Shown here piece after piece: positions 4,148 to 53,989 of a DNA stretch of 64,000 nt (position 1 is the first letter of the stretch; the number at the start of each line of letters is the position of its first letter). The notes beneath the pieces are model-generated. The model was given only the letters and a program-made list of their open reading frames with translations, searched no databases and was not told the origin of the DNA. The position numbers were made by a program, and so were the translations under genes. The stretch covers positions 64,001 through 128,000 of the forward strand of contig CAZNTG010000009.1 in NCBI GenBank assembly GCA_964575955.1, read 5' to 3'. The stretch comes from an uncultured Thermoproteaceae archaeon. Lineage in GTDB: Archaea; Thermoproteota; Thermoprotei; Thermoproteales; Thermocladiaceae.

Positions 4148-4151
4148 TAAT

Positions 4152-5198
4152 ATGCCTATCAAGGTTGGAGTTATAGGATATGGAACTATTGGAAAGAGAG
4201 TAGCTGACAGTATATCAAAGTTTCCTGATGAGTTTGAACTTGTCGGAATTCTAAAACCAACACCAGACTATGAAGCTGAGATAGCTATAAGGAAGGGCTA
4301 TAAAGTATATACATATCCTGAGAAAGTTAAAGATTTTGAAAAACTTGGAATACCAATATCAGGAACTATCGATGAACTACTTGAAAAGATAGATGTTGCA
4401 ATAGATACAACACCTGCAAAAGTTGGTAAAGAAATGAAAGAGAAGTACTACTTACCGAAGAATAAACCAGCAATATTCCAAGGTGGTGAGAAGGCAGATG
4501 TTGCAGATGTAAGCTTTAACGCACTTGCAAACTACGATAAAGCTATAGGTGCTAGATATGTCAGAGTTGTGAGTTGTAATACAACAGGAATTTGTAGATT
4601 ACTATCATCATTCATACTTCACGGATATAAGATTAGGAAAGTTAGAGTATACCTAGTTAGGAGAGGTGCAGATCCTAAAGAACATAAGAGAGGACCAATA
4701 AATGATGTTGTTCCAGATCCAGTAACAGTTCCAAGTCACCATGGTCCAGATGTGAAGACTGTGATACCTGAGATAAATATTGTAACTATGGCTGTTGCAG
4801 TACCTGTAACTATAATGCATCTACACATGGTTAATATAGAGTTTGAACATCAAATAACTAGAGAAGATGTAATTAAAGCACTTGAAGAAACTCCAAGAAT
4901 AATGCTAGTACCATCAGGTAGAAGACTTGACAGTATTGCACATCTAATAGAGTGGGCTAGAGATATTGGAAGATATAGGAATGACATTATGGAAAACTGC
5001 ATATTTGAAGGATCTATATCTGTAGTGGATGGACATGATCTATACTTAATGATGGCTATTCATCAAGAGAGTATAGTAATTCCTGAAAATATTGACGCAC
5101 TTAGAGCAATGTTTAAACTAGCAGACAAGTGGACATCAATAGAGAAGACAGACAAAGTATTAGGAATAGTAACAGAAGGTAAGAAGTACAAATTCTAA
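4152..5198 (+). CDS. gap: Archaeal (class II) phosphorylating glyceraldehyde-3-phosphate dehydrogenase
   Basis: [39 protein letters not shown]. Confidence 0.97.
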
Positions 5199-31844: not shown

Positions 31845-31894
31845 TCAGGCTCGCCCATCGTTCATCAATACTCAGCTACCAACGCGTTCATCAT
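31845..31894 (-). ncRNA. C/D-box guide sRNA
   Basis: Minus strand: ATGATGA-ACGCGTTGGTAG-CTGA-gta-TTGATGA-ACGATGGGCGAGC-CTGA; canonical four-box layout. Confidence 0.93.
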
Positions 31895-34901: not shown

Positions 34902-34949
34902 TCAGTGCCGGAAACCTTCTTCATCTTTCTGTTGCAGGACTTTCATCAT
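34902..34949 (-). ncRNA. C/D-box guide sRNA overlapping the radA stop codon
   Basis: Minus strand: ATGATGA-AAGTCCTGCAA-CAGA-aag-ATGAAGA-AGGTTTCCGGCA-CTGA. Confidence 0.88.
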
Positions 34950-35954: not shown

Positions 35955-36004
35955 TCAGACGGGTTACCAACTCTTCATCTCTCTAGAAGCATGCGGCTCA
36001 TCAT
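35955..36004 (-). ncRNA. C/D-box guide sRNA upstream of radA
   Basis: Minus strand: ATGATGA-GCCGCATGCTTC-TAGA-gag-ATGAAGA-GTTGGTAACCCGT-CTGA. Confidence 0.88.
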
Positions 36005-47223: not shown

Positions 47224-47272
47224 ATGATGAATACGGAGCTCAATGATAGATGATTAACTGGGGAACTACTGA
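47224..47272 (+). ncRNA. C/D-box guide sRNA (array unit 1)
   Basis: ATGATGA-ATACGGAGCTCA-ATGA-tag-ATGATTA-ACTGGGGAACTA-CTGA with TAGA/TCTA terminal stem. Confidence 0.88.
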
Positions 47273-47293
47273 TCTAAAAATGTTGTATAGACA

Positions 47294-47342
47294 ATGATGA
47301 AGTTTCACTTCGCTGAATGTTGATGAAGCCTCTACTCGCTGA
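47294..47342 (+). ncRNA. C/D-box guide sRNA (array unit 2)
   Basis: ATGATGA-AGTTTCACTTCG-CTGA-atg-TTGATGA-AGCCTCTACTCG-CTGA. Confidence 0.93.
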
Positions 47343-47359
47343 ATATTCATCATTCTATA

Positions 47360-47409
47360 ATGATGACGCCAATTTGCCTCTGAATATTGATGAAGTCACC
47401 CGAGACTGA
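47360..47409 (+). ncRNA. C/D-box guide sRNA (array unit 3)
   Basis: ATGATGA-CGCCAATTTGCCT-CTGA-ata-TTGATGA-AGTCACCCGAGA-CTGA. Confidence 0.93.
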
Positions 47410-50990: not shown

Positions 50991-51806
50991 ATGGAAACGC
51001 TAGATATACCTATTAAGAAGGATAGAGTATACATTGTCGGTCTTGGTCCAGGAGATGTATCATTAATAACTTTGAAAGCATTATCAATATTGAAGAAGGT
51101 TGAGGTAGCACTATACACAGGTTCATTACTAAGTCCAAAGCTTGTTAAACTCATTAAAGAATATGCCAAAGAGGTCTACAATACAGCGACATTGAGTGAA
51201 GATGAGATTGTGAATATTCTTGAGAGTGGATATAGGAGAGGTAAATTAACAGCATGGTTTCACGATGGTTGTCCAACAATATATGGAGGTCTGTGGAATA
51301 TAATATCAAAATTGAAAGAGAGGAACATACCTTATGAGATAGTTCCAGGAGTACCATCATTTTGTGCTGCAGCAGCTAGATTAGGTATTGAACTTACAGT
51401 ACCTGAAGAATCACAGACATTAATCATAAGTAGAATCAGTAGAAGAGCTCCTATGAGAGATGAAGAACGTGTTAGAAACTTCGTAGGTAAAGGAACGATA
51501 ATACTAATGCTTAGCATACATGCACCAGACCTAGTTGTTGAAGAATTGAAGAGTGGTGGTATGAGTGGTGATGAACAGATAGTCCTAGTACATAGAGTAA
51601 CATGGGGAGAACCTACAGAGAAAATTATTAGATGTAAATTAGAGGAACTTCCTAAAGTTGTTGAAAGAGAAAATATTAAAGGATGCTCTGTCATAATTGT
51701 TGGACCATGTATAGATGAGAGAAGTTTCTCAAAAACTTTCAGAAGTATTGTATACTCACCCGATAAGCATAAATATAGTAGAACAGTAGTAAGTGAGGGT
51801 CATTGA
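50991..51806 (+). CDS. cbiF: Cobalt-precorrin-4 C11-methyltransferase
   Basis: VGLGPGD, YTGSL, GCPTIYG, VPGV, ELTVPEESQTLII, RVTW. Confidence 0.85.
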   Translation: METLDIPIKKDRVYIVGLGPGDVSLITLKALSILKKVEVALYTGSLLSPKLVKLIKEYAKEVYNTATLSEDEIVNILESGYRRGKLTAWFHDGCPTIYGGLWNIISKLKERNIPYEIVPGVPSFCAAAARLGIELTVPEESQTLIISRISRRAPMRDEERVRNFVGKGTIILMLSIHAPDLVVEELKSGGMSGDEQIVLVHRVTWGEPTEKIIRCKLEELPKVVERENIKGCSVIIVGPCIDERSFSKTFRSIVYSPDKHKYSRTVVSEGH

Positions 51807-52966
51807 TAAATTTATCAAGAATAAGAGTTGGAATCTGTAAGACAGGTCTAGAGGCAGTTCTAATACTTGAAGATGGGTCAATATACTATGGATGTGGTTT
51901 TGGTGCTAAGGGTACTGCAGTTGGAGAGGTAGTATTTACAACATCAATGGTTGGATATCCAGAATCATTAACAGATCCAAGCTATGCAGGTCAAATATTG
52001 ATAATTACACACCCACTAGTTGGCAATTATGGTGTTGCATCTAGAGAATTAGCAATATATGGTGTGCCACTACACTTCGAATCTGATAGAATATGGGTAT
52101 CAGGATTTGTAATACACGACTTAACAGAGCCAAGTCACTGGTCATCAATTATGAGTTTAGATGAGTGGCTTCGTAGAGAGGGAATACCTGGAATATATAG
52201 AGTTGATACACGTGCATTAGTGAAGAAGATTAGAGAGAAAGGTGTTATGATGGGCATATTACACGTATATGATCCTAGAGAAGAAGAGCCAGACATAGAT
52301 GAGCTATATGCAAAATTGAAAAGTTCTCCAAGATATGATGATATACCTTTCGTAGATATAGTATCTCCAAAAGAAGTAATAGTTCATGAACCTGAAAATC
52401 CAAAAATTACTGTAGGTATACTTGACTGCGGTGTTAAGTATGGAATTGTTAGAGAATTATTAAAGAGGAGGTGTAGAGTTGTGAGATATCCACCATATAC
52501 AGATCCTTCAAAGATAGTTAATGAATGCGATGGTGTTGTAATTAGTAATGGTCCTGGAAATCCTGCAGTACTTACAGAAATTATAAAGCGTGTACAAGCA
52601 TTAATAGAGTATGGAATACCAATACTAGGTATATGCCTTGGACATCAACTAACATCACTAGCACTTGGAGCAAAGACATTCAAATTAAAGTACGGTCATA
52701 GAGGTCCAAATAAGACTGTTAAAGATTTAGAGACAGGTAGATGCTATATAACAACTCAAAATCATGGTTTTGCAGTAGATAGAGAACTTGCAGAAAAGGT
52801 TGGACTGAAATTATGGTTTATAAATGTTGATGATAAGACTGTTGAAGGTTTAAAACATGTAAATAAACCAATAATAACAGTGCAGTTTCATCCTGAGGCA
52901 GGACCTGGACCTCATGATACATCTTGGATATTTGACCTATTTCTAAAAATGATGAAAGCTCAGTAA
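51803..52966 (+). CDS. carA: Carbamoyl-phosphate synthase small subunit
   Basis: LTDPSY, SNGPGNP, GICLGHQ, QNHGF, QFHPEAGPGPHD. Confidence 0.97.
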   Translation: MINLSRIRVGICKTGLEAVLILEDGSIYYGCGFGAKGTAVGEVVFTTSMVGYPESLTDPSYAGQILIITHPLVGNYGVASRELAIYGVPLHFESDRIWVSGFVIHDLTEPSHWSSIMSLDEWLRREGIPGIYRVDTRALVKKIREKGVMMGILHVYDPREEEPDIDELYAKLKSSPRYDDIPFVDIVSPKEVIVHEPENPKITVGILDCGVKYGIVRELLKRRCRVVRYPPYTDPSKIVNECDGVVISNGPGNPAVLTEIIKRVQALIEYGIPILGICLGHQLTSLALGAKTFKLKYGHRGPNKTVKDLETGRCYITTQNHGFAVDRELAEKVGLKLWFINVDDKTVEGLKHVNKPIITVQFHPEAGPGPHDTSWIFDLFLKMMKAQ

Positions 52967-52997
52967 ACAGAGAGATGAAGATGCGGAGCTGGTCTGA
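52949..52997 (+). ncRNA. C/D-box guide sRNA overlapping the last codons of carA; guides match 16S rRNA consensus
   Basis: ATGATGA-AAGCTCAGTAAA-CAGA-gag-ATGAAGA-TGCGGAGCTGGT-CTGA. Confidence 0.9.
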
Positions 52998-53062: not shown

Positions 53063-53989
53063 GTGAAGAATCAAGTATGGGCCGAACGTGTTGAAGGTAT
53101 TGTTGGTATAGTTATATCGATAGTAGTATGGTTTATCAGATATCTAGTCTCAATATTCACACTATCAGTTGCAGTACTTGTAGATGCTATACATGCACTT
53201 ATAGATGCATCAACATCAGGAATAGTCTTAGGTACTAGTTTAATAGCTGAAAAACCTGCAGATGAAGAACATCCATATGGTCATGGTAGGGCAGTTGCAC
53301 TTGGATCAAACATTATTGGAATAATAGTGTCAGGTATTGGAGTATGGATGATATATGAAGCAGTTATGAGATATATATCAAAGACATTTCCGATACTAAA
53401 CTACCTATACATATTTGCACCAATAATGTTAACAACAGCATTTATAAAATTTGGACAATGGCTATTTGCCAGATATCTAGGATTGAAATATAGATCTAGA
53501 CTATGTCTAGCGGATGCAAAACATCATCTAGCTGATGCATTGATGACAATTGCAGTAGTACTATCCATGTACATAATATACTTCACAAAACTCTACATAG
53601 TTGACATATTGATAGCTATTGGAATTGGAACATTCATAATTAAGGAAGGTCTAAAAATTGTTAGAGAATCATCATCAATACTACTAGACAGATGTGTCAC
53701 ACCACTAGCTAGAGAAGTTGAAAATATTGCAAAAAATGTTAAAGGTGTTAAAGATGTCAAGAGAGTACGCGTTAGAGATTTTGGAAGATACTACGTTGCA
53801 GAGCTTGACCTTGTAGTTGATAAAAATATGACTCTAGAAGAAGCACACGATCTAGCACATGCTGTTGAGAGTGAAATTATGAGTAAGATACCTGAAATAA
53901 GACATGTACATACACATTTCGCACCTGAAGGAGGTGAATATGTTAGAGAGGATACCAACAAGCAACAAAATGCTCATCATCAATCTTAA
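53063..53989 (+). CDS. Cation diffusion facilitator (FieF-like)
   Basis: DAIHALID, ADEEHPYGHGR, ADAKHHLAD, EAHDLA. Confidence 0.93.
   Translation: MKNQVWAERVEGIVGIVISIVVWFIRYLVSIFTLSVAVLVDAIHALIDASTSGIVLGTSLIAEKPADEEHPYGHGRAVALGSNIIGIIVSGIGVWMIYEAVMRYISKTFPILNYLYIFAPIMLTTAFIKFGQWLFARYLGLKYRSRLCLADAKHHLADALMTIAVVLSMYIIYFTKLYIVDILIAIGIGTFIIKEGLKIVRESSSILLDRCVTPLAREVENIAKNVKGVKDVKRVRVRDFGRYYVAELDLVVDKNMTLEEAHDLAHAVESEIMSKIPEIRHVHTHFAPEGGEYVREDTNKQQNAHHQS

Follow-up and report, generated by a model that had tools for sequence, protein, structure and literature searches.

The 3' end of carA, the gene for the small subunit of carbamoyl-phosphate synthase, also forms the first part of a box C/D sRNA in the archaeal genome studied here (G000), and a comparison of the seven genomes of the genus (G000-G006) indicates that this overlap is derived, having arisen most simply through one deletion at a TG microhomology. 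With its core at positions 52949-52997 of the window (the whole 64,000-nucleotide stretch of DNA that was analysed), the sRNA has the canonical archaeal box C/D form, and its guides very probably direct sugar methylation at two sites of 16S rRNA. The explanation as a whole, an overlap made by deletion on a working dual-guide sRNA, is one that we hold with good confidence.

The box C/D sRNA and the end of carA

Within the window, carA starts with TTG at an overlap with the stop codon of the cbiF/cobM-like gene, and the translated ORF ends in FDLFLKMMKAQ*. Its nearest titled relatives, at 78-82% identity, are from Thermoproteota, Thermoproteaceae and Thermoproteales MAGs. The last six codons, ATG ATG AAA GCT CAG TAA, make up 18 nt of dual-coding DNA, the C box followed by 11 of the D' guide's 12 bases. 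The original prediction that the codons for M-M-K-A-Q-stop double as the C box and nearly all of the D' guide was thus confirmed by the sequence and by the box controls given below. The C and D boxes are perfect, the D' and C' boxes have one mismatch apiece, and the mature sRNA is probably a few nucleotides longer than the core at both ends. The coordinates are collected in Table 1.

Table 1. Features at the 3' end of carA, with positions in the window
Feature	Position	Strand	Basis or remark
cbiF/cobM-like precorrin-4 methyltransferase gene	50991..51806	+	TIGR01465 217 bits, under the 260 cut-off
carA, carbamoyl-phosphate synthase small subunit, 387 aa	51803..52966	+	TIGR01368 433 bits, cut-off 307, E 7e-130
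Box C/D sRNA core	52949..52997	+	Boxes; homologues in 7/7 genus genomes
C box ATGATGA (Met-Met codons and first Lys base)	52949..52955	+	Sequence
Inferred deletion junction, TG present both in a carA Met codon and in the older C box, GTGATGA	52950..52951	+	Alignment, distances, tree
D' guide AAGCTCAGTAAA (Lys-Ala-Gln-stop and 1 nt)	52956..52967	+	Predicted target 16S 560-571
carA stop TAA, within the D' guide	52964..52966	+	Sequence
D' box CAGA	52968..52971	+	Sequence; used by 43/151 genome candidates
Spacer GAG, between D' box CAGA and C' box ATGAAGA		+	Sequence
C' box ATGAAGA	52975..52981	+	Sequence
D guide TGCGGAGCTGGT, non-coding	52982..52993	+	Predicted target 16S 535-546
D box CTGA	52994..52997	+	Sequence
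Cation-diffusion-facilitator gene, outside the feature	53063..53989	+	TIGR01297 above cut-off

A box scan of the 1.52-Mb genome returned 151 C/D candidates. Applied to the genome in reverse, the scan gave 2, and three triplet shuffles gave 4, 4 and 1, so the box motif is not a product of chance. CAGA/xTGAAGA is the most frequent D'/C' pair, found in 41 of the 151 candidates. Genes for L7Ae, Nop5 and fibrillarin are encoded in the genome, each above its cut-off in the profile search. At gathering thresholds, Rfam gave no match in the window; the top sub-threshold match was sR2 (RF01139; 27.9 bits, E 1.4e-4), and the sRNA did not reach the gathering scores of sR2, sR5, sR23 and snoPyro_CD (42, 40, 45 and 45, respectively). 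Its box architecture is like that of these archaeal C/D families, but its guides are not, and it belongs to no named Rfam family. RNA folding showed structure no better than that of shuffles (z 0.32), which is expected because a k-turn RNA is held by protein.

The cbiF gene lies directly upstream of carA in all four genomes that have the overlap and was not seen in this place at the four other loci compared, and it is probably the first gene of the transcript that bears carA and the sRNA. The gene downstream of the sRNA is not the same from congener to congener. In G000, where carA stands behind cbiF, carB is found on a separate contig (C7:95279-98191), unlike most other genera of the order, in which carB starts directly after carA.

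Further C/D candidates were seen in the window. Three lie in tandem at 47224-47409 (+) between two minus-strand ORFs, the third with two predicted 23S targets 27 nt apart, and three more are on the minus strand, with C boxes starting at 36004, 34949 and 31894. The candidate at 34949 provides the stop of a 326-aa ORF ending FRITDKGIEDA, which we take to be RadA-like, and a 143-aa ORF reads through the candidate at 31894 as far as its C' box. Elsewhere in G000, at C6:24000-24500, a structured non-coding stretch of 58% GC is presumably SRP-RNA-like.

Predicted 16S targets of the two guides

Helix 18 of 16S rRNA is a methylation hotspot; the D guide would pair with the 3' strand of this helix, and the D' guide 25 nt further on. 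Given that the 16S of the host is unassembled (none was found in its assembly or in the six assemblies of its congeners), guide targets were tested on 16 16S loci of relatives. Positions follow E. coli numbering, obtained via the 16S alignment in the supplement of Lui 2018 (PMC6009581) and G507 = G530 (offset 23). The D guide, proposed to fit just after the 530 loop, does so at 535-546 with 11 Watson-Crick pairs and one G-U in 9 of the 16 loci; a single A-C mismatch (C541) occurs in six loci and two mismatches in one. The D' guide pairs with 560-571 by 11 Watson-Crick pairs and one G-U in seven loci, all of the sister family and none of the host's family. The seven host-family loci all have C570, with a contiguous D' duplex of 9-10 bp including one G-U, and five of them have a site score of 9.5 of 12. 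The D' match with one G-U that had been claimed therefore holds over 12 bp for the sister family's 16S and falls short for that of the host's family.

The +5 pair is Watson-Crick in 16/16 loci for the D guide and in 15/16 for the D' guide, the exception being L004 with U564. The +5 positions named in the original prediction correspond to G539 and C564, which are taken as methylation sites because of the N+5 rule; the D guide is predicted to direct 2'-O-methylation at 16S G539 (G516 in the numbering of Dennis 2015), and the D' guide at C564. On the relatives' 16S the two target sites are 25 nt apart.

In four sense rRNA operons (6.3-7.3 kb), the site of each guide was the best or tied-best. Shuffled D guides were equally good in 0.3-0.6% of 4000 trials, and in 17% on the operon with C541, and shuffled D' guides in 0.03-47%, reaching 46-47% where the site scores 9.5. 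Both shuffled guides were equally good within 100 nt in 0, 0, 8 and 0 of 4000 trials (at most 0.2%) on the four operons. With a site score of 9.5, the D' match is weak when taken by itself, and the signal lies in the guide pair. Genome-wide, two targets within 100 nt were found for 17 of the 151 candidates, against a mean of 0.3 in 200 shuffles. Together, the relatives' 16S and the joint shuffle test support the earlier proposal of a real dual-guide sRNA with two adjacent 16S targets.

Three DNA runs were mapped to a relative's 16S. The deepest 16S contig over the site in run X1, which may be the source of this DNA, has C541 and A560/C570; if it were the host's 16S, there would be an A-C mismatch inside the D duplex and 9 bp would be left for D'. 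The D guide carries A opposite 541 in 7/7 congeners, and a second G000 guide over 541 carries G there, so that U541 suits both. As circumstantial evidence, a third G000 guide (C6 269286 D') fits the deepest contig poorly near L001:2065. When the remaining guides of the genome were used as an indirect read-out of the host 16S, they contradicted each other at 1937-1950 and in one place, 2065, disagreed with the deepest contig. None of the 16S contigs of these runs could be linked to the host, and the deepest X1 contig is provisionally taken to be the 16S of another organism. In G001, G002 and G004 (L053, L052 and L051), the D' box region is CTAGA and exceeds that of the other four genomes by one base; if the box is TAGA, the target could shift from C564 to A563.

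Four sRNAs of G000, C3 11730 (+), C3 71855 (-), C6 498854 (-) and C9 116949 (+), tile 16S 532-572, with about seven predicted sites (A532, A535, G539, G550, C553, C564 and A572). The D' guide core GCTCAGTAA (52958-52966) is also identical in the same sense to a stretch near the 5' end of relatives' 16S, probably by coincidence. A perfect complement of the 12-nt D' guide was found in an ORF on C8 and set aside as a probable chance target; it lies in C8:36000-58727, about 22 kb of 42-53% GC in a genome of 33% GC, which may be an integrated element or a binning contaminant.

Distribution in the genus and origin of the overlap

The full sRNA is present in all seven genomes of the genus. The pattern of D guide plus D box was found in 7/7 of them and in 0/24 other family genomes searched; the D guide core GCGGAGCTGG is invariant in the seven, and the congener alignment shows variation in the boxes and spacers and none in the guide cores. 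In the sister family, the D-guide pattern was found in 18/29 genomes, and sRNA boxes were found at none of the 23 D-guide-pattern loci outside the genus. The D'-guide pattern occurs in 24/31 family genomes, and among the 25 of 46 matches inspected, both flanking boxes were seen only in three known sRNA copies. A pattern scan of metagenomes returned two loci, which are the same as the G006 and G003 sequences over the compared stretch, and no new orthologues. In G008 and all other family members examined, carA ends without the sRNA.

Within the genus, the sRNA overlaps carA in four genomes (G000, G001, G002 and G004), giving CarA tails MMKAQ* or MMRAQ*. In G003 and G006, carA has a tail of its own (LVRERSR* and MVSERR*, respectively); behind it come a second C/D sRNA, which is on the opposite strand, then a spacer and the sRNA, and in G005 the same back-to-back sRNA pair is located away from carA. 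The D guide and D box of the second sRNA were found, allowing up to one mismatch, in 3/3 non-overlap genomes and 0/4 overlap genomes; since the latter are 69-95% complete, its lack there is to be read as 'not found'. Its D guide fits a 23S segment with 9-10.5 of 12, and its D' guide has no clear target.

Some further observations were made at these loci. At L054, L055 and L056 (G005, G003 and G006), the second C/D sRNA lies upstream, on the opposite strand and back to back with the sRNA. G003 has two carA 3' ends, L026 (G003:C196) and L055 (G003:C10), which are identical up to FLKLV; the L026 copy, at a contig end, has KKI* there and could stem from misassembly or from strain variation. At L056 / L087, the first ATG of a downstream 303-aa membrane-protein ORF falls within the C' box of the sRNA, making a possible 5' overlap; the real ORF may start later.

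When the overlap genomes were aligned with those having the spaced arrangement, a single clean gap fell right at the junction; compared with G003 it measures 119 nt, and compared with G006 111 nt. In G006, carA has ...AAAATG and the sRNA has a GTGATGA C box, and fusing the two at their common TG yields the AAAATGATGA of the window. The copies in G003 and G006, which are outside the carA frame, already contain AAGCTCAGTAA, the future stop included. A tree of RpoB and EF-2 (13 genomes and 1835 columns, with G022 excluded, neither marker available for G001 and only RpoB for G003) gave G005,((G003,G006),(G000,(G002,G004))) with support of 100/99-100. A clade of the pair-keeping genomes G003, G005 and G006 was rejected (p-AU 0.001), as was a grouping of G000 with G003 and G006 (p-AU 0.0008). 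The tree of CarA without its tail is compatible and weaker, with the four overlap genomes grouped at 70/61, and the position of G001 comes from this tree alone. The tree order and the preserved spaced state indicate that the guide, TAA included, existed before it took on a coding role.

From this comparison we infer the following deletion mechanism. The sRNA gene would at first have been an independent unit, arranged back to back with the second sRNA, and the two together would have come to lie just behind carA. The ancestor of the four genomes would then have lost about 110-120 nt in a deletion that joined the ...K-M of carA to the sRNA C box at TG and removed the last codons and stop of carA, the second sRNA and the spacer, which in one congener includes a TATA-like box. 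The reading frame would have continued via the C box and D' guide to the existing TAA, giving the CarA tail MKAQ.

The protein sequences bear on which side constrains the other. What comes after F-D-x-F differs in sequence and length across 22 CarA homologues, the overlap clade excepted. The overlap columns are invariant at 16/18 positions in the four overlap genomes, versus 65% in the carA body. The two substitutions are C/T at guide position -8 (GCT/GCC) and A/G at -12 (AAA/AGA); in both cases pairing is kept via G-U, and the alternative letters at both positions are also seen in copies outside the carA frame. A synonymous-site test had no more than 3-4 informative sites; as background, 32% of the two-fold codons and 22% of the four-fold codons were invariant, with 98 codons in each set. 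As an independent instance of such capture, in G003 the sRNA is read antisense as the C-terminus of CbiH, ...PAPRRHSSAY* (TIGR01466 above cut-off). At L055 (G003:C10, about 4149-4200), the CbiH/CobJ stop lies opposite the D' guide of the sRNA. Given the same guide in copies that carA does not read, the free tails elsewhere and the derived overlap, the tail appears to have been copied from the guide. The claim that the protein tail is constrained by rRNA complementarity understated the direction, since the tail seems to be copied from an older guide. These alignments make the carA tail a by-product of the guide and give no hint of a protein need for it; the picture is one of an RNA under selection and a tolerant protein end.

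Production of the sRNA, alternative explanations and known overlaps

TATA-like words upstream of the sRNAs of this genome are most frequent at -30 to -32, counted from the C box, and occur at -34 to -26 in 36 of 147 candidates (the 151 minus 4 low-scoring ones), versus 6.7% at random. G006 has a TATA-like box at -30, the modal position; none was found within 50 nt upstream of the sRNA in 4/4 overlap genomes, nor upstream of it in G003 or G005. With such a box in one of three non-overlap genomes, any promoter loss is read from G006. A sigma-70 and terminator scan, unsuited to archaea, gave 17 promoter-like sites against 11.9 expected and no terminator. The sRNA is most likely made from the 3' end of a cbiF-carA transcript, which the overlap of the carA start with the cbiF stop makes the likely source, and its excision from the carA mRNA is plausible. 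This co-transcription, like the pairing with the host's own 16S and its methylation, is deduced from sequence.

L7Ae, Nop5 and fibrillarin would assemble on the C/D and C'/D' motifs. A ribosome terminating at the TAA would cover the C box and the D' guide, so the RNP could form only on untranslated or decaying mRNA, and the sRNA would be a protein-protected remnant of mRNAs no longer translated. Trimming to a protein-protected core is a published model (Breuer 2021, PMC7994747). It seems quite improbable to us that the deletion removed the promoter of the sRNA, brought its C box and D' guide beneath the terminating ribosome and so made guide production depend on the expression and decay of cbiF-carA mRNA. 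If true, carbamoyl-phosphate (pyrimidine/arginine) status would be linked to ribosome modification beside the decoding centre, and the seven genomes would offer both states, from before and after the deletion, in which to follow a link between methylation and carA.

Other explanations were weighed against the one preferred here. The lack of any Rfam family at its gathering score would agree with box-like words arranged by chance in an AT-rich genome; however, the 151 real candidates against 1-4 in controls, the retention of the sRNA in 7/7 congeners across two genomic contexts and the joint match of both guides to 16S all speak against this, the conservation of the non-coding copies refutes it, and its probability is negligible. 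An sRNA that is real, but of which one guide works in the host or neither pairs well, with D' drifting to an orphan under coding pressure, is unlikely. It would agree with Pyrobaculum, where 11 of 18 sense 3'-overlapping guides are without targets (PMC6009581), with the D' score of 9.5 reached by 46-47% of shuffles in 5/7 family loci, and with C541 and A560/C570 in the deepest run X1 contig. Yet the D' core does not differ between copies that are coding and copies that are not, and its change in three overlap genomes improves the pairing (C opposite G567); neither the TAA stop nor the CAG codon varies despite available synonyms, and U541 would satisfy both the D guide and the second G000 guide covering the site.

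As for the history of the overlap, it might instead be ancestral, with a C box formed from carA codons and a later split in G003 and G006 by insertion of the second sRNA. It has been suggested that k-turn motifs were seeded by start and stop codons (PMC7994747), and two independent insertions are compatible with the tree alone; but G005, the earliest branch, has the pair away from carA and its union with G003 and G006 is rejected (p-AU 0.001), and carA ends without the sRNA in G008 and all other family members examined, which leaves this reading highly improbable. Regulation could also have kept the overlap, either because k-turns at the mRNA 3' end bind L7Ae to stabilise or throttle carA, or because losing the sRNA promoter tied 16S methylation close to the decoding centre to cbiF-carA expression. 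This idea was raised for such overlaps by Lui 2018 (PMC6009581) and is in line with retention of the overlap in 4/4 clade genomes, the absence of an upstream TATA-like box and the occupation of the C box and D' guide by a terminating ribosome. We nevertheless judge it very unlikely: 31 of 147 candidates overlap the 3' ends of unrelated genes and cbiH captured the same sRNA antisense in G003, both of which look like compaction, and in reporter tests 3' overlaps were neutral or slightly negative (Tripp 2017, reviewed in PMC7994747).

The deletion-made overlap belongs to a class that is published and common, and is another member of it with an unusually clear origin. Category 2 of Lui 2018 comprises sense overlaps of ORF 3' ends of 8 nt or more, with 18 guides, 7 of them with targets, the overlap often being found in only a subset of a family (PMC6009581). 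Here carA runs 18 nt into the sRNA's 5' end on the same strand, and as in that category the sense 3' overlap extends into the D' guide with the stop inside the sRNA; unlike the majority there, both guides keep predicted targets, and the congeners preserve the pre-overlap state and a definable deletion junction. An upstream stop codon accompanies 25% of archaeal C/D sRNAs (Breuer 2021, PMC7994747), and in the survey of Tripp 2017, as summarised in PMC7994747, almost half of the stops are in the C box. Among the 147 scored candidates of G000, the 31 with a sense 3'-end overlap (ORFs of at least 100 aa, called mechanically) include 22 with the stop in the C box and 9 that run past it, and the carA sRNA is the only one of the 31 with its stop in the D' guide, which is the rarer kind.

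The D target site has been listed before, in Dennis 2015 (PMC4644070), where sR166 of Ignicoccus hospitalis and sR105 of Methanopyrus kandleri have 16S G516, that is G539, as a predicted target. The D guide of sR166 has nearly the same sequence and register as that of this sRNA, and sR105 couples G516 with C547, six nt from the D' target here. The second targets differ, being U446 in sR166, C547 in sR105 and C541 here (Dennis numbering), and C541 was not found in the covered part of the Dennis 2015 supplement. The predicted D site is shared with sR166 and sR105, and we claim no homology. Pyrobaculum sR53 targets A493 and C514 (E. coli 537), not G539/C564, and E. coli 564 bears no label in the covered part of the 16S alignment of the Lui 2018 supplement (PMC6009581). 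The covered part of PMC11698992 has nothing on the G539/C564 positions. Within the literature covered, subscription papers lying outside it, neither a carA-overlapping sRNA nor a deletion origin of such an overlap was found.

The finding adds a predicted 16S site, C564, which was not found in the two target sets searched. One genus has the guide RNA in three arrangements, away from carA, at a distance behind it, and, as it appears, fused to it by a single deletion, and its value is that of a worked example of how overlaps between sRNAs and genes arise. It supports the absorption of a ready-made guide by a tolerant protein end in the course of genome compaction, rather than the making of boxes from codons.
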